DNA from: Escherichia coli
GTDB lineage: Bacteria; Pseudomonadota; Gammaproteobacteria; Enterobacterales; Enterobacteriaceae
Reading direction: 5' to 3' (one strand)
DNA: 64,000 nt
Assembly (NCBI RefSeq): GCF_003018235.1
Contig: NZ_CP027437.1
Part shown: one piece after another, positions 30,942 to 53,505 of the stretch
How the letters are laid out: every line of letters starts with the position of its first letter
Numbering within the stretch: position 1 is the stretch's first letter
Notes under the pieces: model-generated
Seen by the model: only the letters and a program-made list of their open reading frames with translations
Databases searched by the model: none
What the model was told of the DNA's origin: nothing
Position numbers and translations under genes: made by a program

Positions 30942-31346
30942 ATGGATCAGGTTGTTGTTTTTCAAAAGATGTTTGAGCAAGTGAGAAAAGAGCAAAACTT
31001 CTCCTGGTTTTATTCAGAATTAAAACATCACCGTATTGCACATTACATTTATTATCTGGCTACGGATAACATCAGAATTATTACTCACGATGACACGGTT
31101 TTGTTATTAAGAGGAACCAGGAACCTGTTAAAAGTTAGTACGACCAAGAACCCTGCTAAAATAAAAGAGGCCGCATTGCTTCATATTTGCGGAAAATCAA
31201 CATTTCGGGAATACTGTTCAACACTGGCAGACGCGGGCGTTTTCCGGTGGGTTACTGATGTTAATCATAACAAACGCAGTTACTACGCCATTGATAATAC
31301 GCTTTTATATATTGAAGATGTAGAAAATAATAAACCATTAATCTAG
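30942..31346 (+). CDS. ycgX: Protein YcgX
   Basis: 134-aa ORF; synteny. Confidence 0.85.
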   Translation: MDQVVVFQKMFEQVRKEQNFSWFYSELKHHRIAHYIYYLATDNIRIITHDDTVLLLRGTRNLLKVSTTKNPAKIKEAALLHICGKSTFREYCSTLADAGVFRWVTDVNHNKRSYYAIDNTLLYIEDVENNKPLI

Positions 31347-39738: not shown

Positions 39739-39765
39739 CCGGATGGCGATGCTGTCCGGCCTGCT
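39739..39765. repeat. REP-like palindromic element / terminator after purB
   Basis: gccggatggcgatgctgtccggcctgc imperfect palindrome. Confidence 0.4.
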
Positions 39766-39815
39766 TATTAAGATTATCCACTTTTTCTTTTTTCACTTTA
39801 CCTCCCCTCCCCGCT

Positions 39816-39832
39816 GGTTTATTTAATGTTTA
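39816..39832 (+). promoter_or_regulatory. PhoP box (direct repeat GGTTTA-N5-TGTTTA) of the phoPQ promoter
   Basis: ggtttatttaatgttta about 60 bp upstream of the phoP start. Confidence 0.7.
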
Positions 39833-39892
39833 CCCCCATAACCACATAATCGCGTTACACTATTTTAATAATTAAGACAGGGAGAAATAAAA

Positions 39893-40564
39893 ATGCGCGT
39901 ACTGGTTGTTGAAGACAATGCGTTGTTACGTCACCACCTTAAAGTTCAGATTCAGGATGCTGGTCATCAGGTCGATGATGCAGAAGATGCCAAAGAAGCC
40001 GATTATTATCTCAATGAACATTTACCGGATATTGCGATTGTCGATCTGGGATTGCCAGACGAGGACGGTCTGTCACTGATTCGCCGCTGGCGTAGCAATG
40101 ATGTTTCACTGCCGATTCTGGTATTAACCGCCCGTGAAAGCTGGCAGGACAAAGTCGAAGTATTAAGTGCCGGTGCTGATGATTACGTGACTAAACCATT
40201 TCATATTGAAGAGGTGATGGCGCGAATGCAGGCATTAATGCGGCGTAATAGCGGTCTGGCTTCACAGGTCATTTCGCTACCCCCGTTTCAGGTTGATCTC
40301 TCCCGCCGTGAATTATCTATTAATGACGAAGTGATCAAACTGACCGCGTTCGAATACACCATCATGGAAACGTTGATACGCAATAATGGCAAAGTGGTCA
40401 GCAAAGATTCGTTAATGCTACAACTCTACCCGGATGCGGAGCTGCGGGAAAGTCATACCATAGATGTACTGATGGGACGTCTGCGCAAAAAAATACAGGC
40501 ACAATATCCGCAAGAAGTGATTACCACCGTTCGCGGCCAGGGCTATCTGTTCGAATTGCGCTGA
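39893..40564 (+). CDS. phoP: Response regulator PhoP
   Basis: 223-aa OmpR-family [31 protein letters not shown]... Confidence 0.95.
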
Positions 40565-42024
40565 TGAAAAAATTACTGCGTCTTTTTTTCCCGCTCTCGC
40601 TGCGGGTACGTTTTCTGTTAGCAACGGCAGCAGTAGTATTGGTGCTTTCGCTTGCCTACGGAATGGTTGCGCTGATCGGTTATAGCGTCAGTTTCGATAA
40701 AACCACGTTTCGGCTGTTACGTGGCGAGAGCAATCTGTTCTATACCCTTGCGAAGTGGGAAAACAATAAGTTGCATGTCGAGTTACCCGAAAATATCGAC
40801 AAGCAAAGCCCCACTATGACGCTAATTTATGATGAGAACGGGCAGCTTTTATGGGCGCAACGTGACGTGCCCTGGCTGATGAAGATGATCCAGCCTGACT
40901 GGCTGAAATCGAATGGTTTTCATGAAATTGAAGCGGATGTTAACGATACCAGCCTCTTGCTGAGTGGAGATCATTCGATACAGCAACAGTTGCAGGAAGT
41001 GCGGGAAGATGATGACGACGCGGAGATGACCCACTCGGTGGCGGTAAACGTCTACCCGGCAACATCGCGGATGCCAAAGTTGACCATTGTGGTGGTGGAT
41101 ACCATTCCGGTGGAGCTAAAAAGTTCCTATATGGTCTGGAGCTGGTTTATCTATGTGCTCTCAGCCAATCTGCTGTTAGTGATCCCGCTGCTGTGGGTCG
41201 CCGCCTGGTGGAGTTTACGCCCCATCGAAGCCCTGGCAAAAGAAGTCCGCGAACTGGAAGAACATAACCGCGAATTGCTCAATCCAGCCACAACGCGAGA
41301 ACTGACCAGTCTGGTACGAAACCTGAACCGATTGTTAAAAAGTGAACGCGAACGTTACGACAAATACCGTACGACGCTCACCGACCTGACCCATAGTCTG
41401 AAAACGCCACTGGCGGTGCTGCAAAGTACGCTGCGTTCTCTGCGTAGTGAAAAGATGAGCGTCAGTGATGCTGAACCGGTAATGCTGGAGCAAATCAGCC
41501 GCATTTCACAGCAAATTGGCTACTACCTGCATCGTGCCAGTATGCGCGGCGGGACATTGCTCAGCCGCGAGCTGCATCCGGTCGCCCCACTGCTGGACAA
41601 TCTCACCTCGGCGCTGAACAAAGTGTATCAACGCAAAGGGGTCAATATCTCTCTCGATATTTCGCCAGAGATCAGCTTTGTCGGTGAGCAGAACGATTTT
41701 GTCGAGGTGATGGGCAACGTGCTGGATAATGCCTGTAAATATTGCCTCGAGTTTGTCGAAATATCTGCAAGGCAAACCGACGAGCATCTCTATATTGTGG
41801 TCGAGGATGATGGCCCCGGTATTCCATTAAGCAAGCGAGAGGTCATTTTCGACCGTGGTCAACGGGTTGATACTTTACGCCCTGGGCAAGGTGTAGGGCT
41901 GGCGGTAGCCCGCGAAATCACCGAGCAATATGAGGGTAAAATCGTCGCCGGAGAGAGCATGCTGGGCGGTGCGCGGATGGAGGTGATTTTTGGTCGCCAG
42001 CATTCTGCGCCGAAAGATGAATAA
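40564..42024 (+). CDS. phoQ: Sensor histidine kinase PhoQ
   Basis: 486-aa ORF with two TM segments, H-box and ATPase domain; overlaps the phoP stop. Confidence 0.95.
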
Positions 42025-42110: not shown

Positions 42111-42131
42111 ACTACACCATTAACTACACCG
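42111..42131. repeat. 21-bp direct repeat ACTACACCATTAACTACACCG (candidate att core, left copy)
   Basis: Perfect copy at 53485..53505; imperfect similarity continues for ~40 bp to the right of both copies. Confidence 0.7.
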
Positions 42132-42286
42132 TTCGGTGCACTGTATGAAACAACGTGGAACAAATAGACACAAGAAATATATGGGCGGGTAATTTATCTA
42201 TGTGAAAGCGTGCCGACTAATAGGGCGTTAATGTCGATATGGGGATCCCCATATCGGGAACCATACCGGAATTTTTGCCAGGTTAA

Positions 42287-42409
42287 ATGTTAACCGCTGC
42301 CCTGTTAACATTTTTACCAAAAAGGTAGTTAACATTTTTTGCACGCAACCATATGAATCATAAAGACAAAATCAACAACAACGCTTCATCAGGCAGTTAA
42401 CATGTTAAC
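42287..42409. promoter_or_regulatory. Cluster of GTTAACAT / ATGTTAAC half-sites, including the 14-bp palindrome GTTAACATGTTAAC (candidate iterons/operators or packaging site)
   Basis: Motif at 42287..42294, 42304..42311, 42328..42335 and 42396..42409 in a gene-free ~0.8-kb terminal region. Confidence 0.4.
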
Positions 42410-42833
42410 TACTACAAAACGGTAATTTTTTCTCTGCGTGAGAGTGGGCGCGGTGTCCGAATTGTTCGTTGTTCGTGGCTAACCGCTCCCCCCCCTATAC
42501 CGGATTTTTTTCCGGTTAATCTTTAATCAGGCTGGTGGGGGTTACATACCCTTGATCACCGTAATGATGATTCAGGTATGCACCTTTCCCCCCGATGGGG
42601 TAAAAGCATCAACCGTAACGGTAATATCTGCCTTGATGGTCTGCGTGGTCATTATGACCATTCAGCCAATGACCTTAATCAGAATTTTTCGCTAAAAAAT
42701 GATGTTGGCCACGTCGTCCGGAAAGCACAAAATCCCGTCGATTTTTAATTAACGGTTAAACCGCCTTTTTGTCACGGTGTGTCACTGGTTGCCACTCACC
42801 GTCACGATGTCCGCTCGCCTGGCTGTAAATTAA

Positions 42834-42852
42834 ACTACGAAAATTTCGTAGT
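42834..42852. promoter_or_regulatory. 19-bp perfect palindrome ACTACGAAAATTTCGTAGT (followed by GGGACTACAAGTCCC palindrome)
   Basis: Read directly; lies upstream of the left-end hypothetical gene. Confidence 0.4.
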
Positions 42853-42925
42853 TGTGAGGGACTACAAGTCCCGCGCAAATTTCCCCCGGTCCCCTCAAAT
42901 TGAGGTTGCCGGAAATATCAACCAG

Positions 42926-43207
42926 TTACCGCCGTAACCGCTCCAGCTTCTTCCAGTGGTACGTAATTTTCTCTTTCTCCCGGTACATCTCAACGCGGCG
43001 ATTGTAGGCCAGCATTTCCAGAACGCGGATCCGTATGTCGCGCATATCTACATCGTTAAGCTGGATACCATCACGGCGCATCACCTCAGCAACCACACGC
43101 GCATAATTTTCAGCGGTCACGCTGTCCGGCTGCGTTGCCTGTTCGTCAGCCTGCTGGCTGATTCCTGCAACGCGGTGGATTAATCGCAGTATTTCGGCTT
43201 CTGTCAT
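42926..43207 (-). CDS. Hypothetical protein (93 aa)
   Basis: ORF 42926..43219; probable start ATG 43207 (MTEAEILRLIHRVAG...) with G-rich SD. Confidence 0.5.
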   Translation of the reverse strand: MTEAEILRLIHRVAGISQQADEQATQPDSVTAENYARVVAEVMRRDGIQLNDVDMRDIRIRVLEMLAYNRRVEMYREKEKITYHWKKLERLRR

Positions 43208-43241
43208 TGTGCCCCCCATCGTTCTAATCGTCTGGTGTCGT

Positions 43242-43295
43242 CGGGTCCTTCCTGGAATTATGGCCCGTTACGGGGCGGCGACCTCGCGGTTTTTC
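43242..43295. repeat. Inverted repeat, left arm (terminator-like hairpin plus T-run)
   Basis: Reverse complement of 43887..43940; the inner 32 bp are identical. Confidence 0.75.
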
Positions 43296-43521
43296 ACTAT
43301 TTATGAGATTTTTTAGGGGGTGGTTGTTGTTTAATTGTTTGTCATATCTATTTGATAACTAAGTAAAAATAGAGAGCAATACAACAACCTGATAGTGTTT
43401 TTTGATGCTACAAATAAAAAAAATGCTAATTGAATCAAATAGTTTTACAAAAATACGTGGTTGTTGTATTGCGTATTTGATGGCGTAACAGAAAGTGATT
43501 TTGAACTTTGCTGTTCTGTGA

Positions 43522-43731
43522 CTACTGATTGTTCCATGCTGGCGCGGCGAACGCTTCGGCATGACGCCCCCCAGCCAGAAAACCAGCCATTTTATTTCGT
43601 GCTTTGCTCACATCTTCCGGTGAGTAGCCGTAAATCTGTAAACCTTCATTGAATCGATGTTCTGTTTCTTCACTTGAGTACTCGTCGCTCTCCGATGAAA
43701 TCAGCCTGGCAACTTCAGTCTGCGTAGCCAC
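43522..43731 (-). CDS. Hypothetical acidic protein (69 aa)
   Basis: ORF inside the inverted-repeat-bounded cassette, downstream of CATGTCCGG repeats. Confidence 0.4.
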   Translation of the reverse strand: MATQTEVARLISSESDEYSSEETEHRFNEGLQIYGYSPEDVSKARNKMAGFLAGGRHAEAFAAPAWNNQ

Positions 43732-43753
43732 TCCTCACCTCACAATCACGACA

Positions 43754-43860
43754 AAACCGGTCATGTCCGGTTTACATGTCTATTTTTTGCGCATGTCCGG
43801 TTCATGGAAAGCCTATTTTTATATTTTTCATATAGTTAACTTGCAGAGAAACCGGACATG
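43754..43860. promoter_or_regulatory. Three copies of the CATGTCCGGTT(T) motif, including the 20-bp palindrome AAACCGGTCATGTCCGGTTT (candidate operators)
   Basis: 43754..43773, 43792..43806 and 43848..43860 (inverted). Confidence 0.45.
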
Positions 43861-43886
43861 GATCCCGGAAAATTTTCATAAATAGC

Positions 43887-43940
43887 GAAAAACCGCGAGG
43901 TCGCCGCCCCGTAACGGGTCCATATGCCGGAAAGGACCCG
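43887..43940. repeat. Inverted repeat, right arm; acts as minus-strand intrinsic terminator of the capsid operon
   Basis: Hairpins followed (on the minus strand) by a T-run, 30 bp after the stop of the 137-aa gene. Confidence 0.75.
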
Positions 43941-43969
43941 TAAAAAAGCCGGATTTCTCCGGCCTTGTC

Positions 43970-44383
43970 TCAGATGGTTTTCAGTATGCGATCGATGTCG
44001 CCGTCATCGCCCGGGTTTCTGCCATCGTATGCCATGCCAGCTGATACGGCTTGCGGGCTGTGCATGTCCATAAAGTTTTCAAAGGCTGCGGTAAGCTCTG
44101 GTGCAACCTTCAGGCGTTCCTGCTCTATGGTCATGCTAAGGATGCTTTTAGCCGTACCAACATCGATACAAGGCACGTTTGCCATTGCACGTAACAGCGG
44201 CTGATAGTCGCCAGATTCATCAAGCGCCATAATCGCATCAGAGCGCGGCTTGTCCTTCTCTTCCAGGCTGTTAAGTTGATATACGGCCTCGTAGGTTGAT
44301 AAACCTCTGTCAGCCATTGCCCGCGCTTCGGCCTTAAATTTACTCGCCAGCGGTAGCGTCATGATGCTTTCATTCGTTGCCAT
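43970..44383 (-). CDS. Hypothetical protein (137 aa), capsid-module associated
   Basis: ORF directly downstream of the decoration-like gene. Confidence 0.5.
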   Translation of the reverse strand: MATNESIMTLPLASKFKAEARAMADRGLSTYEAVYQLNSLEEKDKPRSDAIMALDESGDYQPLLRAMANVPCIDVGTAKSILSMTIEQERLKVAPELTAAFENFMDMHSPQAVSAGMAYDGRNPGDDGDIDRILKTI

Positions 44384-44395
44384 CGTTACCCCTGC

Positions 44396-44731
44396 TTATC
44401 GCGCCAGCGGCTGAACGGATACGCCAGAACCCGCAAAGGCGGCGCATTTTTTCGCGTCGGTGTCGACGCTCTCAGGCCAGTTTACAGCGGCGATATTGAA
44501 TATCCCCGCCTTGTAGCACTGTGCTGATTTCTGCTTTGACGTGTCCACGGGGTACGACGTCAGGTAAACAGCCTTGCCCGATTCCTGACCATCCCACGGT
44601 TTAAACTCGCCATTGTCCGCCAGCATCAGCGGGGTAAATTCCTGAATAACGCCAGCATCAGCGGCAAAATGTACCAGCGTCGTGGCGACCTGCTGACTGC
44701 CTGCAAATAACTCAATGTATGGAGTGTCCAT
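44396..44731 (-). CDS. Lambda gpD-like head decoration protein
   Basis: 111 aa; aligns to recalled lambda gpD (TPLMLxxxxxxxxxWDG..., xYKxGxF, WPE, KKxxAFAGxxxS). Confidence 0.7.
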   Translation of the reverse strand: MDTPYIELFAGSQQVATTLVHFAADAGVIQEFTPLMLADNGEFKPWDGQESGKAVYLTSYPVDTSKQKSAQCYKAGIFNIAAVNWPESVDTDAKKCAAFAGSGVSVQPLAR

Positions 44732-44742
44732 AGAATTCCCCG

Positions 44743-45798
44743 TTAACCAATTTTGACGGTAACAAATTTGCGAATATCTGCCGGTACCGGCTGCGGTGCG
44801 CTGTGTGTCTGCACGTACTCAATCGCCGGATCGCCGTCTTCAATCCAGTTTTTCGGGTAGAACATGTTTTGCGTTGCGCCCGTTCTTACCGCTTCCTGAT
44901 CCATAATCGCACCATAGGCCACCAGCCCTTTATTGTTGGTGTTACCCAGGACCAGCAAATCAGGCTCAAGGAAATATTTTTCGGTGCCGTCGCTGTCAGT
45001 GTATTTGCCGGAATAGACGATAAGGGCCAGATCACCAAGATAGCCTTTAAAGCTCACCACTTCGCCCAGGTTTTTACAGGCCAGTTCGGCGGCGGATTCT
45101 GAACCACGGGAAAGATCGTACAGCTCACGGAATTTTTTAAAGCTGCGTAATGTGCGCCATACCTCAGCGCCCATAATCATGACGTTTGCGGGGCAACCAG
45201 CCTGATCAGCATAAAGCTCGATGTCATAGATTGGGTCGTGCATGTCTTTATCCTGCTCGGACCATTTTTTACCATTGGCCTGCTCTATGATGCAGTTTTC
45301 CGGTATTTTCCAGTCGATTTCATAGCGTTCTATGCCTTCGCCCTCAATGATGTTTTTTCCGGTCGTTACCGCATTCACCGCCAGCCATTCCACGCGTGCC
45401 TTAATGGCGTTTATCTGGCGGCGCACGTTGCCAGTAATCAGGCGCATGCGTCGGTATGTAGGGTCGTTAAGCTGTGCCGGATCTTCTCCAGCCATGCGCA
45501 TGATGGTTTTTGTTGGATCGATTTCATGCTTTGGCTTCATGTAGCCGGGTTTAATCGTGCTGGTTTCGTACCCTTTATCGCGCTGGACATGGCTACCCAC
45601 CATAGGCGAACAGAACGCTGACATCGTAACCTCTTCAATGTCCAGGGTGTCCAGCATGATGCTTTGGGTGTTGAAGGTCGCCACGTTCGGGAAAAACAGC
45701 GTGGTAAACAGCGGACTGAATTTAAATTCAGCAATATCCCCGCGATTCAGGTACGCGAAAAGCTGGTTAGTGTTAAGTGCCGTTGCTTTTCCTGCCAT
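44743..45798 (-). CDS. Lambda gpE-like major capsid protein
   Basis: 351 aa; conserved blocks KFxFxPLF, TPGYxKPKHE, DPxYRRxR, YPKNWxxxGDP relative to recalled lambda gpE. Confidence 0.8.
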   Translation of the reverse strand: MAGKATALNTNQLFAYLNRGDIAEFKFSPLFTTLFFPNVATFNTQSIMLDTLDIEEVTMSAFCSPMVGSHVQRDKGYETSTIKPGYMKPKHEIDPTKTIMRMAGEDPAQLNDPTYRRMRLITGNVRRQINAIKARVEWLAVNAVTTGKNIIEGEGIERYEIDWKIPENCIIEQANGKKWSEQDKDMHDPIYDIELYADQAGCPANVMIMGAEVWRTLRSFKKFRELYDLSRGSESAAELACKNLGEVVSFKGYLGDLALIVYSGKYTDSDGTEKYFLEPDLLVLGNTNNKGLVAYGAIMDQEAVRTGATQNMFYPKNWIEDGDPAIEYVQTHSAPQPVPADIRKFVTVKIG

Positions 45799-46004
45799 TA
45801 TTCACCCCCATGAGTCTGATTCATGCCCAGCGCCGCGCGTAAATAGGCGCGTACCTGCCAGCCTGTTGACGGCTCAACCATCGCCAGCGGATCAAGTCCT
45901 GCCGCAATGCCTGCTTTTACGTTCTGCTGGTGGCGTTCCTTGAGCGCCTCCACGATGTCGGGGCTTATGTACACCGAAACACCGCCTTTTTTCTCTTCTG
46001 CCAT
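45798..46004 (-). CDS. Hypothetical protein (68 aa) upstream of the capsid gene
   Basis: ORF with start/stop overlap with the capsid gene. Confidence 0.4.
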   Translation of the reverse strand: MAEEKKGGVSVYISPDIVEALKERHQQNVKAGIAAGLDPLAMVEPSTGWQVRAYLRAALGMNQTHGGE

Positions 46005-46166
46005 TGGTTGAAATTCCTCTTTAACAAAAAAAACATAACTGGATGAAAATCCAGTTGTGATTATAATTGTGATTGCACTTTGTGCAACGATATTGAGTTA
46101 TATTGCAAATTATGAAATGATTATCCCGATCATGTGTGTCAGTGCACCAAAAAAAACTCATATGCA

Positions 46167-46207
46167 AAAGCCCGATAAGACCCCTCTGACCTTATCGGGC
46201 TTTTTTA
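46167..46207. terminator. Bidirectional intrinsic terminator between replication and capsid modules
   Basis: Stem gcccgataag/cttatcgggc with TTTTTT on the plus strand and a T-run on the minus strand. Confidence 0.55.
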
Positions 46208-46409
46208 TCTGTCGGCAAAGACATCGAACAAAAATTAATCACAATCATCATCTTTTTTTCATCAATGCGATTAAAAACAATAAATTACGCTCATGATGAT
46301 GATGACGATAAAACCACAAAAATGCGCTTTTTTCCGCGCCACCCGTCCCGTGGATGGTCCCGCCAGCCAGGAGGACCCATAAAAAAGCCGGATTGCTCCG
46401 GCTCTGCTC

Positions 46410-46682
46410 TCACTTCTGCGGGTAGTTGCGCCATATTGTTTTCCCTATACCATCTATCCCCATTTGTTTTTCAGTGCGATCAACCGACCGTTTCAGCGCG
46501 CCAAAACCATCCGGCGGCTCCGGTGGCCTCTGTGCCTTCCTGGAACATTCCAGCCGTCGCATTGCCACCTGTGCGCGTTCCTTGTCTGTCTCCACCAGCT
46601 GCATGACTTCACCCCATCGCGCGGCCGCCCTCCGGTAAAAGCCTTTCGACTCGAGTTCCTCCGCTATGCGGTCATGTACCAT
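46410..46682 (-). CDS. PerC-like transcriptional activator
   Basis: ORF 46410..46802; probable start ATG 46682 (strong SD, 10 nt after the SSB stop); motif GFYRRAAARWGEVM resembles the PerC RGLWRRAADLW motif. Confidence 0.5.
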   Translation of the reverse strand: MVHDRIAEELESKGFYRRAAARWGEVMQLVETDKERAQVAMRRLECSRKAQRPPEPPDGFGALKRSVDRTEKQMGIDGIGKTIWRNYPQK

Positions 46683-46692
46683 CCTCACCCCC

Positions 46693-47103
46693 TCAGAACG
46701 GAATACCATCACCGTAAGGGTCATCGCCTCCCGCTGGTGGCTGATTACCCTGTGTGCCTGTGGTTGTGCGTCGGCTCCCGCCAGGACGTGCCGTACGGGC
46801 ACTGATTACGCTGTCTGCAATGACCTGATAACCCTGCCGCGTTTCGCCGTTCTGTCCGGTCCACTGGCTTACCTGCATGTTACCCGCCACGCTCACCAGT
46901 TCGCCTTTGTGGTGTTTTGCCAGTGCGTCGGCCTGTCTGCCAAACGCCAGGACGGATAACCACATCGTCGCCGTTCCGTCATCTGTCTGGCTGCATGGCA
47001 GGGGAACCGCCATACTCGCCATCGCCATTTGTGTCCCTTTGCTGGTGGTCTTTAACTGCGGGTCAGCCACCAGCCGTCCGTAAGCCGCTATCTGTGCTGT
47101 CAT
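46693..47103 (-). CDS. Single-stranded DNA-binding protein (SSB-like)
   Basis: 136 aa; OB-fold-like N-terminus and C-terminal acidic tail ...DDPYGDGIPF (SSB signature DDDIPF). Confidence 0.7.
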   Translation of the reverse strand: MTAQIAAYGRLVADPQLKTTSKGTQMAMASMAVPLPCSQTDDGTATMWLSVLAFGRQADALAKHHKGELVSVAGNMQVSQWTGQNGETRQGYQVIADSVISARTARPGGSRRTTTGTQGNQPPAGGDDPYGDGIPF

Positions 47104-47342
47104 GCTGTCTGCTCTCCGGTTTTAACGTTGATGGTTGTTACCTGTTCCGCTTCGGCAATCTCCCGTTCTGTCAGCGTGGCAAAGTTTGCGGCCGCTGTGG
47201 TCATGAATGCGCTTATCAGTTCTGGATGTTCCTTCGCGTATCCTTCCCGCGTGTGGCGGTCGATGATTTTTATCGCCACCCTCAGCCAGTGTTCTGTAAG
47301 GTCAATGGCGCGGTGATCTGTCTTTTTGTGGCTTACCTTCAT
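47100..47342 (-). CDS. Hypothetical protein (80 aa)
   Basis: 4-nt overlap with the SSB start. Confidence 0.45.
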   Translation of the reverse strand: MKVSHKKTDHRAIDLTEHWLRVAIKIIDRHTREGYAKEHPELISAFMTTAAANFATLTEREIAEAEQVTTINVKTGEQTA

Positions 47343-47345
47343 GAT

Positions 47346-47669
47346 TTACTCCAGGGTACCGCTATTGCTGCAGTCGTTAACCGGATACCAGGCAAATACC
47401 CATGACTCACCGCAGTGAACAAACTTCTTATCTGGCAGATAAAGGCACTCGAACATTCCCTCATCAGGACTATGCGGACTCACGCCAAGCTCACTGGTCA
47501 GCACGGGTAAGATTTCGCGGTAAGTATCCCCAGTGCCGAAATGGTTGACCTCACAAAGCGCCCATGCAGCAATTGGGCTATACCATTCCGTGCCGTCGTC
47601 GTCTTTGAACTTCGCCCACCAGCCAGGAAGGGCGGTTGATAAGCTCAGTGTTTCAATTTCAGATTTCAT
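47346..47669 (-). CDS. Hypothetical protein (about 107 aa)
   Basis: ORF 47346..47714; start placed at MKSEIETL. Confidence 0.45.
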   Translation of the reverse strand: MKSEIETLSLSTALPGWWAKFKDDDGTEWYSPIAAWALCEVNHFGTGDTYREILPVLTSELGVSPHSPDEGMFECLYLPDKKFVHCGESWVFAWYPVNDCSNSGTLE

Positions 47670-47915
47670 AAATTCACCTTCTGTATTTTGTCCTGCTGTT
47701 CGATTTTTATTCATTACTCACCACTCCTCACTTTTACTCCTCACTTTTTAAGTTGCCTCACTTCGTCTCACTTGAGATTTTCGTGTTTTCTATTAATTTG
47801 TTTTATAAGATTTTTTTCACTCCTCACTTTTGAGGATGTATACAGGTGAGAAAGTGAGTAATTGTGTTAATATTTTGTAAAAACCTCACCGTTACTCACT
47901 TTTGCTACTCACTTT

Positions 47916-49325
47916 TTACAGTGGTCCTACATCATCACCATCAATGTAAATCACGGCGTCTTTTTCCAGTTTGGCTAACCATCGCCGCATATTTTTCACG
48001 TCATACCCAAGCCGTTTCATGTCATCACGTAACAGCGCAATAGTGCACTTGTCGCCGTTCTGTGTGCGTGAACGTATGCACCCCCATAGCGCGGTATGGT
48101 TTTCCGTCTTGTTGCCTGCCTCCTCGATGCGCTCCAGTTCAACAGGAGGACGCGGCTTATCCACCACCACCAGCGACGTGATTAATTCGCCGTCAGCGTC
48201 GGTAAAAAGCTCCACTACCCGCAAATCGTAGGCGGCTTCTTTGAGTTCCTCTGCGTCCTTCATTTTTGTGCATGAGATAACCAGGGCTTCGCTTCCTGCG
48301 TCCTCTCTGCGTATCCGGTATTCAGCGTCCAGTGATGCACGGAATGCACTGGAACCACGCGCGCCCTTTGTTTCATCTTTGCCGGAATGGTGAACCACCA
48401 GCACCGTGGACCCTGTGCGTCGTTTCAGTTCGTCACATCCACGGATAAACGCCCCCATGTCACGGGAGTCATTTTCATCATTGCCGCCAAAGCAACGCGC
48501 CAGCGTATCCAGAATAATCATTCGAACAGGTTTACCCGTTTCCCGCTCCACCTGGCTGGCTGCGATAACCATTTCATCAACATCAAGCGGGGCCGCCGGA
48601 AAGACCGGACGGTTTACCAGATACAGATTTTTCACCTGTACATCGTGCACAACCTCCCAGGCTTTTATGCGACGCGGAACGCCTATACCACCTTCACCAA
48701 CCACATAGAGAACAGAACCATGTGCAACCCTGCGGCCTCCCCAGTGGCGGCCCGTTGAAATGTGACACGCCCACGAACCAGCAAGAAACGATTTATAGGA
48801 TCCGCTCGCTCCGTATATGCTGCACAGCGACGCCGCCGGAATAATGCCCTTAACCACGTAATCCAGTTGCGTGTCATATCCGGTAGATCCAACGCTCATC
48901 GGTAGCGTGGTGTTTCGTTGGGGGTTTTTTGCCATTACCAGGCTTTCCCCTCTCTCCCATGTCTCCCGCAACCGTGGTAGCTGGTCGGTCCATTTCTCCA
49001 GCAATTCGAAATTTTCAGAAAGCAGTCGCGCTTCCCTGACTCCGGCAATCGCCAGTTTCGTCGCGATGGTTAGCAACTGCTCTTCGTCAATATTTCCGGC
49101 GCGTATCACTGTGACCCTGTGCCGCCCCTCATCAACAATTTGCAGATTATCCAGTTCGCTTAACTGATAACGGCCCAGGTAAACGGGAGGCGTCGGGTCT
49201 CCCGCCTTTTTGGCCTGTGCAACGATGTAATGCTCTGCAAATGAGTGAGCATCAACACCCGCGAAAATAATCGCGTCGGTGTACTTATCTTTCGGTAATA
49301 GTTTTACGTTCGGTGCCAGTTTCAT
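47916..49325 (-). CDS. Replication protein with RecA-fold (RepA/AAA_25-type) helicase core, Pri-Rep-like
   Basis: 469 aa; Walker A-like GASGSYKS, Walker B-like MIILDTLAR, SGKDETKGARGSSA motif typical of RepA-type helicases of satellites and plasmids. Confidence 0.7.
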   Translation of the reverse strand: MKLAPNVKLLPKDKYTDAIIFAGVDAHSFAEHYIVAQAKKAGDPTPPVYLGRYQLSELDNLQIVDEGRHRVTVIRAGNIDEEQLLTIATKLAIAGVREARLLSENFELLEKWTDQLPRLRETWERGESLVMAKNPQRNTTLPMSVGSTGYDTQLDYVVKGIIPAASLCSIYGASGSYKSFLAGSWACHISTGRHWGGRRVAHGSVLYVVGEGGIGVPRRIKAWEVVHDVQVKNLYLVNRPVFPAAPLDVDEMVIAASQVERETGKPVRMIILDTLARCFGGNDENDSRDMGAFIRGCDELKRRTGSTVLVVHHSGKDETKGARGSSAFRASLDAEYRIRREDAGSEALVISCTKMKDAEELKEAAYDLRVVELFTDADGELITSLVVVDKPRPPVELERIEEAGNKTENHTALWGCIRSRTQNGDKCTIALLRDDMKRLGYDVKNMRRWLAKLEKDAVIYIDGDDVGPL

Positions 49326-49621
49326 TTTTTACCCCTGAATCCGTTAATCATGTTTTTCATCTTCTGAATATTGGCGCGGGCCTTCTCCCTGCTGGTGGGC
49401 TGGCTGCGTTGCGCTGCCTGTACCAGAGAAAAATCACGCCGGAACTGATAAACAGGCATCACGCAGTCATATTCGTAGCCTTCACGGCGGTAGGTTACGC
49501 GCCGTTCCTCCACGCCCTTGATCATTACCGTGCCGCCGTACTGGTCGCGGTAAATATCCCCGCGCATGAATTTAGTGCGAGTTTTGCCGCTGGCAGTTAA
49601 GCCAGAATATTTAAGTTTCAT
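49322..49621 (-). CDS. Hypothetical basic protein (99 aa)
   Basis: 4-nt overlap with the replication gene start. Confidence 0.45.
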   Translation of the reverse strand: MKLKYSGLTASGKTRTKFMRGDIYRDQYGGTVMIKGVEERRVTYRREGYEYDCVMPVYQFRRDFSLVQAAQRSQPTSREKARANIQKMKNMINGFRGKK

Positions 49622-49626
49622 TATTT

Positions 49627-50109
49627 TTATTCTCCGGTGTGGGGCGTTTTATTCTGTTCGCGTAATAACTCTTTTTCTCTTAAATTGAATTCAGCTACGT
49701 AATCGGCATAATCAGCGGTAATATTCAGTACATCCACTCCCGTTGCTTTATATTCTTTCATACCAAGTAAGAAAAAAGATGCCCTTATCAGTTCCGATAT
49801 TGATGAAAGCGCATCAGTCGCATCATCGGATAATCCTGAAAATTCCTGTTTCAGGGCATTAAAACGATCATCACGCATAACCCCCCCATTTTCACAATCA
49901 GCAATCAGGATAGCTTTGGCCTCATTCAGTGCCATATCAGCGGTAAGCTGTGCGTATGCCAGTGAATGCGGGATTATTGCCCCGGTATATTCCGTCTCTC
50001 TGGTAATGTGTTTTTCTGCGGTTGCTGCCGTGCATGAAATATCAATCAGCGCGTGCATTAGCGTTCTGATAGCTTCGGCGGCTGCGTCCGGACGGATGTT
50101 ATTGCACAT
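49627..50109 (-). CDS. Hypothetical protein (160 aa)
   Basis: ORF in the leftward operon. Confidence 0.45.
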   Translation of the reverse strand: MCNNIRPDAAAEAIRTLMHALIDISCTAATAEKHITRETEYTGAIIPHSLAYAQLTADMALNEAKAILIADCENGGVMRDDRFNALKQEFSGLSDDATDALSSISELIRASFFLLGMKEYKATGVDVLNITADYADYVAEFNLREKELLREQNKTPHTGE

Positions 50110-50716
50110 GTATCACCCCCTGACGAATACGGGCGGCGAATACAGCAACACAACCAGACGGGCAACGGCTACGCGCTTCGCGTTCCGTCCAGGCGGTGAC
50201 GTGGATGATTTGGGATTCTGACGCGCAAAAGATGATAAAGCGCCAGATAAAGGCAGTTTGAGAATGTACGAGGGTAGGGATAGTAGCCATGTTGGCAGCC
50301 TCCTTTATCGTTGGGATAACCCCACCGCCGGAGGTGGTAAGCTCGCTGGCGGTGGACTGTACGGAGTTACCACAACTGGCGATAAAGGAAACCAGCCCGA
50401 CCGAAGTCGGCCCCGTACAGCCCACCATTGTAAAGGTGTGCGTGTGCGCCGATACAAAAAAAGACGCGTGCGGCGTCTGTATCGCCTTTATCTCCAGCGG
50501 GGTGGTAATCCCGGCACCCGTTTTATGAGGTGCACGGGAATCATAGCCATTTCCACCAGTGGCGATCAACTGGTTTTTCTGGCGAGCTTCCTGTTCGCTG
50601 GTGGCCTCAATGGTAATCACGCGCGGTTGTGCCGTGCTCAGGGCGATAAAACGCCAGATGTATTTATTCAGGTTGTACGAGCCCCGCCCTTGCGGGTGTG
50701 TGGTATGATTTCTCAT
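50099..50716 (-). CDS. Uncertain ORF spanning a tandemly duplicated ~0.4-kb module
   Basis: Frame open from ATG 50716 (GAGG SD) to stop 50099; a second SD plus ATG at 50290 inside; DNA-level paralogy between ~50221..50340 and ~50619..50750. Confidence 0.3.
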   Translation of the reverse strand: MRNHTTHPQGRGSYNLNKYIWRFIALSTAQPRVITIEATSEQEARQKNQLIATGGNGYDSRAPHKTGAGITTPLEIKAIQTPHASFFVSAHTHTFTMVGCTGPTSVGLVSFIASCGNSVQSTASELTTSGGGVIPTIKEAANMATIPTLVHSQTAFIWRFIIFCASESQIIHVTAWTEREARSRCPSGCVAVFAARIRQGVIHVQ

Positions 50717-50813
50717 AGCTACCTCGATACTCTGGTTATCGTTGGTGGTTAGACGCCCTGCATGTGTTGCGAGCACTGCGGGGCGTTGCTTAATTTGAGT
50801 AACACCACTCAAA

Positions 50814-50895
50814 CTGTGCGCACAGATTAAAATTATGTATGCGCACACATCAATACTTAACATCTCGTTTTTTTTGCTGTATTGTGTGCGCCCAT
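50814..50895. promoter_or_regulatory. Operator cluster between divergent operons: palindrome CTGTGCGCACAG plus two related TGTGCGC sites
   Basis: 50814..50825 perfect 12-bp palindrome; 50835..50850 near-palindrome; about 50883..50893 third copy. Confidence 0.5.
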
Positions 50896-50921
50896 AAAGT
50901 CCATTTAAGTAAGGTGCATCA

Positions 50922-51119
50922 ATGTCTAGCGGTAACACAAACAACAAATCAGCAAAGAAAAATATTCGATTCCCACATGAGCTTATAGATGGAATTGATG
51001 CCAGCGTTGAACAAGAAAAATTAACTAATCCTAGTGCTAATTTTTCCGCATGGGTCTTGGATGCCTGTGGACGCAAATTAAAATATGAACAGCGCCGCAA
51101 GGCCAAAGAATCAGAATAA
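50922..51119 (+). CDS. Small ribbon-helix-helix-type DNA-binding protein (candidate island repressor)
   Basis: 65 aa; KKNIRFPHELIDGIDA...FSAWVLDACGRKL pattern; divergent from the replication operon. Confidence 0.5.
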   Translation: MSSGNTNNKSAKKNIRFPHELIDGIDASVEQEKLTNPSANFSAWVLDACGRKLKYEQRRKAKESE

Positions 51120-51176
51120 TTACTATCAGCGCCGTGGTGTGAGGTACTCCGGCGCATTGCTTTACAGGTACACACA

Positions 51177-51401
51177 ATGACCAAAGGCACATCATCACCG
51201 GAAAACGGCGAAATTACGCCAACATATGAAATTATCCGGCAAAGGCAGTCAGAAGCCTGCGCCAGACTTGAGGAAGAACTAACCAGAACAAAAATACCAC
51301 CAGCGCCGCGCTTAGCGCCACCAGAAAAATTTGCCCTTGAAGATTTTGTCGAGAAATACCCACGGCGGCTTAAATCTGGTAAAAACCGCCCGCCAGGCTG
51401 A
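51177..51401 (+). CDS. Hypothetical protein (74 aa)
   Basis: ORF downstream of the RHH gene. Confidence 0.4.
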   Translation: MTKGTSSPENGEITPTYEIIRQRQSEACARLEEELTRTKIPPAPRLAPPEKFALEDFVEKYPRRLKSGKNRPPG

Positions 51402-51665
51402 TAGCATTGTCCACCAGCAATAGAACGGTTATCATGCTCTGGCTTATGTTTGGGATCACATACACATAAGGTGCAGCGGGTTAATTGTTCAGAAAGGCGG
51501 TTCCATTTCGGGGCCGCTTTTTTTATGCCTGAAAAACCCCAATTTTGTTGTTTTCCAGTCTCACCAGGGCGAACGAATCCCCGCCCACATTCGGGCGCAT
51601 ATTCAATCTTCATGGTTATATCTCTGTATTAGTGGATGTGTGGCGGCTGCGTGCCGCCAGCGTGA

Positions 51666-51854
51666 TTAATGAACTGCCTTGCAGCTATCCTTCCAGGCCA
51701 GAACCTCGGATAAAGACCAGCCAACGGAACGACCGCCAAGTTTACGACGTGATGGGAATTGTCCGGCCTTTTCCAGGCGGTAGCGGCATGAGCGGCTAAG
51801 GCCTGTTAGCTTTTCGCATTCTTTTTCACGTATAAACCGATCAGTGCTTAACAC
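51666..51854 (-). CDS. AlpA-family excisionase / transcriptional activator
   Basis: 62 aa; LTGLSRSCRYRLEKAGQFPSRRKLGGRSVGWSLSEVLAW matches the AlpA helix-turn-helix pattern. Confidence 0.7.
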   Translation of the reverse strand: MLSTDRFIREKECEKLTGLSRSCRYRLEKAGQFPSRRKLGGRSVGWSLSEVLAWKDSCKAVH

Positions 51855-52228
51855 TATTGCCCCCTTTCGTTTCTTAAAGAGTTATTTCGTGTTCTATTGC
51901 GTTGGGATGTGTCTGATTGTGTCAGGATGATTCAGAGTTGGCAAATGTTGAGGTCGTATGGTTTACAGAAAGAGGAACAATCAGGATAAAATCATTTAAA
52001 TTCATGTTAATACAAAGGCATAAAATCTCGTTTTATGCCTTTTTTCTCACGTGTTAAAGCGTTATTCGCTAATGTATAAAAAACCAGTCACACAAATAAA
52101 ATCAGTCACTTATAAACCTGCGTACTTTTTCGCCTCTTGTTCGTGGTTGTTCCACGTTGTTTCACATTGTTCGCCGTTGTATCTGTGTGCTTATCCAGTA
52201 TGCGCATACTGAAAAAACACGAAAAAAA

Positions 52229-53476
52229 TTATTTTCTTCTGGCTGCTGGTAGTGCGGTTACGTTTTCTTGTGTTCCCGCCAGTATCCCTAACCGCTCCGT
52301 CCACATATCCAGCGCATTGCGTTTAGCATCCAGATAACGGGAATGATTATAAACTCGCTGCATTCCTGGCATCTGGTGGCCTGTAAGCTGCTCCACGACG
52401 TGAGGATCCACGCCTAAATCGTTCAGCATCGTTGTAAAGGTGCGCCGGATGTCATGTAGTGACCAGTGAGGGTGATTTAGCCTCCTGTGCGCTAATCTGC
52501 CGTACTGCGACACGCTTGTTTCCTGTTTCACTTCCCCCAGCAATAAGCCCGTGTTCCTGTTCTGCTCCACCAGCTGCGTGACGAACGGCAGTATTGCTTC
52601 CGGTATGGGCCGGAATATTGCCACCTTCGTTTTGCTGTGTTCTTTCGGCACGGTCCAGAGCATTTCGGTAAAATCCCACTCTCTGATCTCCGATAACCTC
52701 AGTTCTACCGTCCGGCATCCGAACACAATCAGGAGGCGGATTAACGCGATGTAGTAAGGGGAAAATATTTTTTTGTCCAGTGCCTGCAATAATTCGCCCA
52801 GTTCTTTGGTGCTTAAGACACGCTCGCTTATATCCGGTTTTTTCCCAACGTCCGCCACACTCATATCATCAAGAACGTTGCTGATTGCATAGCGCCGCCT
52901 CCTGCAGAACTTAAGCGCCTGTTTGCACGTCTGTAGCAAGAATCCGGCAGTAACAGGCGTTCGCTTTGCCACCTGGTCAAAACAGGCCAGCCAGTGCCGT
53001 AGCTCGCATTTATCCAGCGGCATAGCACCAATGTGCTGTATTACGTGATTATTAAGGCGCTTTTTCAGGGCGGCATAATCCACGCGATTTTCCTTTGCGT
53101 ACGACTCAAGCCAGTAGGTGAGCGCATCGCCAACCGTTACCGGCTTTAACGCTTCCTGTACGGTGTAATTCATTTCATGACGTGGATTTTTCCCCTCTGC
53201 CAGCCATGCGCGACACTGGGCGGCTTTTTCCCTGGCTGATTTCAGGCTCAGATCAGGATAATTTCCCAGCTTAATGCGTTCCGGTGGTGCCCCCCTTCCC
53301 GTTCCGGCCCTGTAAGTGAAATACCAGGTTAAAAGGCCACTGGTTGAATGCCTGACGCTCAGGTTTCCACCGTCATTAAGAAAGGCTGTTTTTTGGGCGG
53401 GTGTGCCGTTGATTTTCCTCAGCTGTGTATCGCTCAGTTTGTTAAGTGCTCTGCTCATAATTTTGATTCCGGTCAT
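52229..53476 (-). CDS. Tyrosine site-specific integrase (P4-type)
   Basis: ORF 52229..53479; R...HxxR...Y catalytic-region motifs (HDIRRTF, GHQMPGMQRVYNHSRY); adjacent to the right repeat. Confidence 0.8.
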   Translation of the reverse strand: MTGIKIMSRALNKLSDTQLRKINGTPAQKTAFLNDGGNLSVRHSTSGLLTWYFTYRAGTGRGAPPERIKLGNYPDLSLKSAREKAAQCRAWLAEGKNPRHEMNYTVQEALKPVTVGDALTYWLESYAKENRVDYAALKKRLNNHVIQHIGAMPLDKCELRHWLACFDQVAKRTPVTAGFLLQTCKQALKFCRRRRYAISNVLDDMSVADVGKKPDISERVLSTKELGELLQALDKKIFSPYYIALIRLLIVFGCRTVELRLSEIREWDFTEMLWTVPKEHSKTKVAIFRPIPEAILPFVTQLVEQNRNTGLLLGEVKQETSVSQYGRLAHRRLNHPHWSLHDIRRTFTTMLNDLGVDPHVVEQLTGHQMPGMQRVYNHSRYLDAKRNALDMWTERLGILAGTQENVTALPAARRK

Positions 53477-53484
53477 CACAATTA

Positions 53485-53505
53485 ACTACACCATTAACTA
53501 CACCG
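53485..53505. repeat. 21-bp direct repeat ACTACACCATTAACTACACCG (candidate att core, right copy)
   Basis: Identical to 42111..42131; preceded by an extra ATTAACTACACC unit. Confidence 0.7.

Follow-up and report, generated by a model that had tools for sequence, protein, structure and literature searches.

The stretch of Escherichia coli DNA analysed here (64,000 nucleotides of contig NZ_CP027437.1, hereafter the window) carries a phage-inducible chromosomal island (PICI) of the EcCICFT073 family, and this report is concerned with positions 43242-43940, an island segment bracketed by inverted repeats. The reference element EcCICFT073, the model PICI of Gram-negative bacteria, possesses two functional cos sites, cos1 and cos2, flanking rppA (= c1503); RppA heterodimerises with the small terminase of the helper phage and redirects it to the cosB of cos1, and the papers on it state that they recognised no phage cosB in the island (Fillol-Salom et al., 2018, ISME J, PMC6092414; 2019, Mol Cell, PMC6739421). 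That members of this PICI family have two cos sites is therefore published and already known. At the real CFT073 locus, cos1 lies directly upstream of rppA, and cos2 is found downstream in inverted position. The corresponding segment of the window contains the following features.

43242..43472, plus strand: left cos, in the position of the published cos2, with a cosB of the class here called G (homology to prophage cosB preceding nu1 and gpA homologues)
43243-43249, plus strand: cosQ core GGGTCCT of the left cos
43273-43284, plus strand: 12-nt cohesive end GGGCGGCGACCT of the left cos
43322-43330, 43381-43389 (inverted) and 43459-43467: R3, R2 and R1 of the left cosB, with an A/T-rich IHF-like block between R3 and R2
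43522..43731, minus strand: 69-aa chimeric remnant open reading frame (ORF), Nu1(1-9) + Rpp(~78-128), from translations, a three-way DNA alignment and tblastn with Rpp 78-128
43704..43712, minus strand: recombination junction, a 9-bp microhomology TTGCCAGGC common to phage nu1 (codons 7-9) and rpp (codons ~77-79)
43755..43940, minus strand: right cos, in the position of the published cos1, with a cosB of the class here called P (140/148 identical to the cos-cosB of PhiR12_1)
43850-43860, 43792-43802 (inverted) and 43762-43772 (inverted): R3, R2 and R1 of the right cosB, with an overlapping one-mismatch copy at 43755-43765
43898-43909, minus strand: cohesive end of the right cos
43933-43939, minus strand: cosQ core of the right cos
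43942-43966, minus strand: intrinsic terminator, GGCCGGAGAAATCCGGC + TTTTTT (dG -17.7 kcal/mol, z = -4.68, 0/200 shuffles as stable)

Cos sites in the inverted arms

The two arms of the inverted repeat, 43242-43318 and 43864-43940, measure 77 nt each, are 84% complementary and are spaced 545 nt apart. A sequence-only reading of the same DNA had described them as 54-bp inverted repeats; the repetition and its identical core of 32 nt are real, and the length has to be corrected. The three repeat copies noticed in that reading were recovered as exact CATGTCCGGTT at 43762-43772 (plus), 43792-43802 (plus) and 43850-43860 (minus), together with a 20-bp palindrome, which is created by the one-mismatch copy at 43755-43765. 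With up to one mismatch allowed, CATGTCCGGTT has four matches in the window, all inside the same 106 bp, where 1.3 are expected window-wide. A second triplet had been overlooked and consists of GGTTGTTGT at 43322, 43381 (inverted) and 43459; the 11-mer GGTTGTTGTWT occurs four times in the window (three times in this triplet and once as a stray match at 30950) against 0.08 expected.

Each arm combines the cosQ core GGGTCCT with the cohesive-end sequence GGGCGGCGACCT and with the beginning of a cosB, which is conserved, as judged with the definitions of cosQ, cosN and R and the CFT073 cos1 and cos2 sequences given in the supplement of PMC6092414. The cohesive end is exact in both arms, the flanking 32 nt are identical from arm to arm and match lambda/DE3, and cosQ lies ~30 nt upstream of cosN on both sides, as it does in lambda, phi80, PhiR12 and CFT073 cos1 and cos2. 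A blastn search with the region gave matches on both strands to the cos regions of many lambdoid phages, among them lambda, HK629/630 and DE3, and the DE3 record (EU078592) labels the matching site, immediately before nu1, as 'cos site'. Position +1 of cosN falls at 43273 on the plus strand and at 43909 on the minus strand, so that both cosB sides point inward and the two sites stand head to head.

In both arms cosQ and cosN are followed by a cosB with three R elements, R3 and R2 being opposed. Counted from cosN, these lie at +50 (forward), +108 (inverted) and +138 (inverted) in the P class, exactly as in PhiR12_1, and at +50 (forward), +109 (inverted) and +187 (forward) in the G class; R3, R2 and R1 of lambda are at +53, +109 and +154. 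A scan for IHF sites gave an 8/9 match at +73 of the G cosB, where lambda has I1 (+79). The likeness to lambda and phage 21 extends from the identical 12-nt cohesive end and cosQ core to the R3 and R2 distances and the forward R3 and inverted R2, and in the phages nu1 starts ~180-240 nt after cosN. The differences concern the R elements themselves, which read CATGTCCGGTT in the P class and GGTTGTTGT in the G class as opposed to CGTTTCC(T/G)TTCT in lambda and CATGTCGG-type elements in the 21-like prophage of CFT073, and the arrangement, since the cos sites of the window face each other and are not followed by terminase genes. On these homologies, both arms are lambda-type cos sites, copies of phage packaging sites that belong to different specificity classes.

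This assignment bears on an earlier proposal, according to which the arms are outward-facing intrinsic terminators that insulate an autoregulated defence or anti-defence cassette, with CATGTCCGGTT as its operator. A permissive scan with a terminator consensus does give each arm a 5-bp stem, G-T pairs tolerated, and a T-run; the arms are nevertheless no more stable when folded than dinucleotide-shuffled sequence (z = -0.02, +0.90 and +0.72; best stems 3-4 bp) and lack the G+C-rich hairpin joined to a T-run of an intrinsic terminator. The supposed operators coincide with the R elements of cosB at +50, +108 and +138, and the ORF is a truncated and frameshifted nu1'::rpp' remnant instead of a defence or anti-defence factor. 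Because arms and repeats are homologous base for base to phage cos and cosB, the terminator and operator model is refuted, and we see next to no chance of its being correct. A genuine terminator is present at 43942-43966, just outside the right arm, downstream of the preceding gene, and it directly adjoins the right cos at its cosQ. In all relatives the 3' half and the T-run of this terminator are kept upstream of the cos on the same side, and transcription of the capsid module is probably halted here before it reaches the cos.

The two cosB classes were traced in phages and prophages. Over cosN +1 to +148, CFT073 cos2 shares 143/148 positions with PhiR12_1, next to the 140/148 of the window, and the match of the right cos to PhiR12 phages continues into a gene annotated as 'terminase subunit Nu1'. 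Among 5426 complete E. coli genomes, a P-type cos-nu1 segment, annotated 'terminase small subunit', is present in 1154 (~21%) and a G-type cos-nu1 in 244 (~4.5%). In deposited phage genomes (blastn against INPHARED with the low-complexity filter on), the left, G-class cosB was matched over its first 34 cosN-proximal bases only, and the class was found by a pattern scan of IMG/VR, which yielded 80 loci. In ~55 of these 80, a Nu1 homologue begins ~240 nt past the cos that bears the G motif, and gpA comes next. The G-class Nu1 is 71% identical to PhiR12 Nu1 from residue 26 onward only, the N-terminal winged helix-turn-helix (wHTH) being different, and the G-class gpA is up to 97-99% identical to the large terminase (TerL) of PhiR12. 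The island version of the G cosB aligns with the phage version across R3, the IHF-like TTGATAA block, R2 and R1 and diverges directly after R1; the left cos is identical at 171/208 positions to phage locus L014.

Two further observations concern CFT073 itself. In its cos2 (positions 3160-3309 of our CFT073 record, compared with PhiR12_1), the third R element is truncated (AAAACCGGACAT|CG). The lambdoid prophage resident in the strain ('phi4' in the 2018 paper; 39745-39933 of the same record) has a phage-21-like cosB with CATGTCGG-type elements at +53, +112 and +153, and this cosB is distinct from that of either cos site of the island present in this genome.

The chimeric ORF and its relatives

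The ORF between the two cos sites agrees with its first description as a 69-aa acidic frame: it has 69 codons and a GTG start at 43522-43731 on the minus strand, and its acidity is mild (11 D+E against 6 K+R residues, isoelectric point 4.8). Read on the minus strand from the right cos, the sequence follows PhiR12_1 over cosQ, cosN, all three R elements, the leader of nu1 (ribosome-binding site included) and codons 1-9 of this gene, and then continues as rpp from about codon 78. In a three-way alignment of the window, PhiR12_1 and an rpp-carrying relative, TTGCCAGGC is the only invariant block at the point of the switch. Alignment with three intact Rpps further places a 1-nt deletion that alters the last ~15 residues. 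Absent from the ORF is the wHTH that characterises the Rpp family (residues 1-64, including R21-T22), which mimics the DNA-binding domain of the small terminase (TerS). In a close relative at the same site, that of strain 2014C-3338, the 146-aa protein encoded between the cos sites matches RppC (PDB 6HLK) with E = 2.4e-31. A PHROG profile search with the 69-aa ORF gave no match, and a new small protein family was considered and set aside, the ORF being explained as a nu1'::rpp' chimera. Elsewhere in the window we found no intact rpp, Rpp-type cosB, nu1/Nu1 or gpA/TerL. The chimera occurs in only two of the 5426 complete E. coli genomes, in one of which (GB089) the island occupies another att site, tRNA-Pro/yejM; one IMG/VR contig has it as well.

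The nu1'-rpp' join deleted the Rpp-type cosB together with the Rpp DNA-binding domain, and we infer that the ORF is a decaying by-product of it. A different view would be that the ORF encodes a functional mini-Rpp, expressed from nu1 translation signals and binding TerS or full-length Rpp through its retained C-terminal helices. The nu1 ribosome-binding site and GTG start are indeed preserved, Rpp residues ~78-128 lie within the dimerisation region (a4-a6), which also contacts helix a3 of TerS, and the same ORF is intact in GB089 and in the related locus L039. Such a protein would, however, be deprived of residues 1-64, which form the main TerS-mimicking interface and the cosB reader, and its tail is frameshifted inside a coiled-coil helix in comparison with the three intact Rpps. 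A strong terminator stands upstream, with no promoter-like site found in between, and relatives with a 535-bp interior have lost nearly all of rpp. A mini-Rpp is therefore very improbable in our estimation.

The suggestion that the same pair of inverted repeats might surround differing cargo in other genomes proved correct, with an intact rpp, a chimeric remnant or almost nothing between the arms. When the islands are oriented by their flanking genes, from the side of the gene for a 137-aa protein (here the connector side) to the side of the small gene orf97, an Rpp-type cosB with intact rpp and a G cosB is seen in 9-10 loci, and an Rpp-type cosB with rppA and a P cosB in CFT073. The order P, nu1'::rpp', G, with 636 bp from cosN to cosN, is shared by the window, GB089 and L039. 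The Rpp-less configuration of 535/541 bp combines P and G, the connector side being P in six loci and G in four. Throughout the at least four configurations and several integration sites, two complete cos, with intact cosQ, cosN and R cores, are kept in all related satellites examined (~24 of ~24).

The interior was also suspected of being an invertible segment, and in related islands it is in fact seen both ways round between identical flanks. The clearest pair is formed by strain SCU-172 (locus L086) and locus L007, which have identical flanks and interiors 97.8% identical over 600 nt in opposite orientation; among complete genomes, three have the L007 orientation and eight the flipped one. 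Sequence comparison leads us to regard the interior as invertible, at least on evolutionary time-scales. A simple inversion as the sole difference between the window and the 535-bp class was rejected, as the interiors also differ at the P-to-rpp junctions. Polymorphisms on the cosQ side always stay with the flank and those at +17 and +24 mostly move with the cosB class, which places the exchange points between -8 and +16. This interval is compatible with homologous recombination by RecA or phage Red within the 25-32-bp identical core, and equally with cutting at both cosN sites followed by religation. The crossover by which the window acquired P must lie deeper inside, at a point between +24 and ~+33, and for this event at least homologous recombination is indicated.

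No dedicated site-specific invertase accompanies the two orientations: a single recombinase was found in the island, its att-specific integrase at a distance of 8 kb, and neither a serine invertase nor a Fim-type gene was found. The resemblance to the Hin/Gin/Cin and FimB/E switches therefore consists in short inverted repeats around a segment that occurs in both orientations. Unlike those systems, the window has neither an invertase gene nor a promoter or gene whose expression would change, its repeats are terminase substrates, and inversion between cos sites would be functionally symmetric, each cosB staying joined to a complete cosQ-cosN. One could go further and propose that the head-to-head pair is a self-contained module operated by terminase, in which helper specificities (Rpp-type, P, G and possibly others) are swapped in combination and the interior inverts by a route not previously described, through cutting at both cosN sites and re-annealing of the identical 12-nt 5' overhangs (GGGCGGCGACCT); we hold this to be a speculative and rather doubtful extension.

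Two satellites deserve separate mention. In E. coli Ch1, with cosN at 1572 (plus) and 2343 (minus) of locus L087, both arms have the same variant cohesive end GGGCGTCGACCT. A change in concert of this kind suggests either that gene conversion has acted between them or that they adapted to a helper whose cosN has this sequence. The same island codes for a divergent Rpp of 137 aa (MNNKDCFVSQQEIAEH...). In the contig IMGVR_UViG_3300028982_000003 (469-1446), a cos is followed by a gene for a Nu1-like protein of 181 aa (38% identical to lambda Nu1) and directly afterwards by an orf97 homologue (75% identical), and a G-class phage terminase cluster lies 10 kb from this segment. The contig may represent a satellite variant with a full-length TerS-like gene in the position of rpp.

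Proposed direct use of phage-type cos sites

In lambda and phage 21, the wHTH of Nu1 binds the R elements, IHF bends cosB and gpA nicks cosN; specificity is determined by that wHTH together with the R sequences. Translocation then runs from cosN through cosB, and to end, with the head almost full, it needs a cosQ-cosN of like orientation. Against this background, we read the region as the packaging-signal module of an EcCICFT073-family PICI, a satellite packaged by the terminase of a lambdoid helper, whose two phage-class cos sites would be used directly by the terminase of P- or G-class helpers without Rpp, a reading to which we assign a probability of about 0.72. The window's allele is a member of the island family, but one without the signature packaging-redirection mechanism, given that a functional Rpp (wHTH and C-terminal dimerisation domain) and its cognate cosB are absent.

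After induction and replication of the island, a Nu1-type small terminase of the P or G class would bind its cognate R elements, aided by DNA bending, and would position the large subunit to nick cosN, the direction of packaging being set by that cos. A P-class helper would thus start at the right cos and a G-class helper at the left cos. The inverted partner ~0.6 kb away would be disregarded for termination, and the concatemer would be packaged up to the next cos of the same orientation. Redirection of a lambda/phi80-type TerS by Rpp, and the interference associated with it, would have been lost in favour of direct mimicry of two helper sites. Owing to its inverted arms, the segment could also turn its interior round and trade cosB modules with phages.

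Several points weigh against this reading. Cleavage and packaging have been demonstrated by experiment only for the cos1 and cos2 alleles of CFT073 (PMC6092414, PMC6739421), and in that island the P-type cos2 is dispensable for lambda and phi80 transfer, its deletion even raising lambda-mediated transfer (PMC6092414). An IHF-like site of at least 8/9 was not found in the P-class cosB, which has an A/T-rich tract only. The left cosB is only 82% identical to the phage version, though all three R cores are exact. Finally, the comparative set of satellites was ascertained through the G motif, and the frequencies of the configurations are biased accordingly.

The cos2 result also speaks for the possibility that one cos alone matters and that the other is a neutral scar of recombination between satellite and phage, of no selective benefit; so does the region itself, which with its chimeric junctions is plainly a hot spot of recombination. 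A scar is less readily reconciled with the retention of two complete cos in ~24 of ~24 satellites and with the correspondence of both cosB classes to terminase classes that are common in E. coli prophages, and we consider this alternative unlikely. The deletion result suggests that a second cos has a cost, which would be offset by access to a further class of helper.

It might also be argued that a phage-type cos, carried by the amplified satellite, serves mainly as a decoy, titrating or misdirecting the helper terminase, with abortive cutting and inward packaging, and so lowering the phage yield. PICIs generally interfere with the packaging of their helpers, the usual interference factor Rpp is lost here, and inward-facing cos sites would make simultaneous initiations collide. 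On the other hand, a functional cos is required for the transfer of the satellite anyway, and decoy and packaging roles can coexist. That the cos acts chiefly as a decoy is improbable.

Comparison with EcCICFT073 shows where the window departs from the published arrangement. Insertion site and gene order are identical in the two islands, as are the flank-specific cosQ arms and the presence of two head-to-head lambda-type cos. The P cosB of the right cos corresponds, in inverted position, to that of CFT073 cos2 (91% identical over 179 nt), both being at least 94% identical to PhiR12_1. The connector-side cos1 of CFT073, in contrast, has an Rpp-specific cosB followed by intact rppA, with the P cosB on the other side, whereas in the window a P cosB with nu1' has taken the place of both the cos1 cosB and the 5' half of rpp, opposite a cosB of the G class. 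Satellites with a copy of a helper cos in place of a small terminase of their own are otherwise represented by SaPIbov5, SaPIbov4 and HE-PICI 11capE. SaPIbov4 is cited as having two putative cos sites (PMC6092414), and 11capE shares 258 bp at 90% identity with the cos region of its helper, a partial precedent for direct cos mimicry. The cos-type SaPIs belong to other phage and host lineages, and two cosB classes for two types of helper, or inversion between cos sites, were not found described for SaPIbov4/5 or 11capE in the searchable literature. In the same literature we found no later work on cos2, Rpp-less variants, satellite cosB classes or PhiR12 phages beyond the 2018 and 2019 papers and the remark on 11capE, and no account of a cos2-type cosB matched to common phage terminase classes, of cos1 and rpp replaced by a phage cos, or of the orientation polymorphism.

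EcCICFT073-family PICIs spread virulence and defence genes through E. coli with high frequency, and the range of phages able to mobilise them depends on the packaging signal. The published model accounts for cos1 by means of the Rpp-TerS heterodimer and leaves cos2 unexplained. Our comparison offers a testable answer, namely that sites of the cos2 type faithfully reproduce the cosB of other lambdoid terminase classes that are common, and that some islands, the one in the window included, gave up Rpp for two phage-type cos sites. If this is true, the helper range of an island could be read from its cosB sequence, and a satellite would change from one helper to another by recombining over short stretches with the phages it parasitises. 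For annotation, the occurrence of both orientations calls for caution, and it hints at recombination or terminase activity on cos in vivo.

The host island

The island lies between phoQ (40564-42024, with an icd-sized ORF upstream) and roxA, and its features outside the cos region are the following.

42111..53505, minus strand: EcCICFT073-family PICI of ~11.4 kb, between phoQ and roxA, with all genes on the minus strand
42111..42131, no strand, on the phoQ side: 21-bp att direct repeat ACTACACCATTAACTACACCG, with its partner at 53485-53505 (longest exact direct repeat between the island borders)
42926..43219, minus strand: conserved small ORF (orf97) of 97 codons, 93 aa as annotated in relatives (phrog_1561, E = 3e-54)
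43970..44383, minus strand: 137-aa protein, scaffold/Nu3-like (phrog_1999, E = 2e-62; phrog_53 head maturation protease, profile positions 494-567)
44396-44731, minus strand: head decoration protein, gpD-like (phrog_49/phrog_29 matches for the decoration-capsid pair; counterpart in EcCICFT073: c1500)
44743-45798, minus strand: major capsid protein, gpE-like (phrog_49/phrog_29 matches for the decoration-capsid pair)
51666-51854, minus strand: AlpA-type regulator (same arrangement in related islands)
52229-53479, minus strand: tyrosine integrase, co-oriented with the rest of the island

The gene content comprises the tyrosine integrase, AlpA, an Ash/Icd-like protein, a RepA-like helicase/primase, SSB, the gpE-like capsid and gpD-like decoration proteins and the Nu3-like 137-aa protein. 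Membership of the PICI family follows from co-oriented int and alpA, a replication module of its own, a size of 11.4 kb (~10-15 kb being usual), no lysis or tail genes, the att site, and capsid and decoration homologues followed by two cos. The EcCICFT073 homologues of the latter are c1499 (capsid) and c1500 (decoration) (PMC6092414). The last gene of the island, orf97, stands on the cosQ side of the left cos and is found beside the cos pair in every related island examined. The 137-aa protein is named '(phage) head-tail connector' in some RefSeq records; its likeness is to the C-terminal scaffold part of a lambda-type head protease/Nu3, and in G-class phages tblastn locates homologues (35% identity) several kb beyond TerL, on its downstream side. 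The island therefore carries a trio of scaffold-like, decoration and capsid proteins.

A 504-aa ORF at 50099-51613 (minus) was considered as a novel large accessory gene and rejected, because only its last ~160 residues match satellite regulators of the Ash/Icd type (phrog_29966, NF033153); the 340 codons before them resemble non-coding sequence that happens to stay open. The att repeat ACTACACCATTAACTACACCG is internally tandem, reading ACTACACC-ATTA-ACTACACC, and the sequences immediately inside its two copies are alike (CGTTCGGTGCAC and CGATCGTTGCAC).

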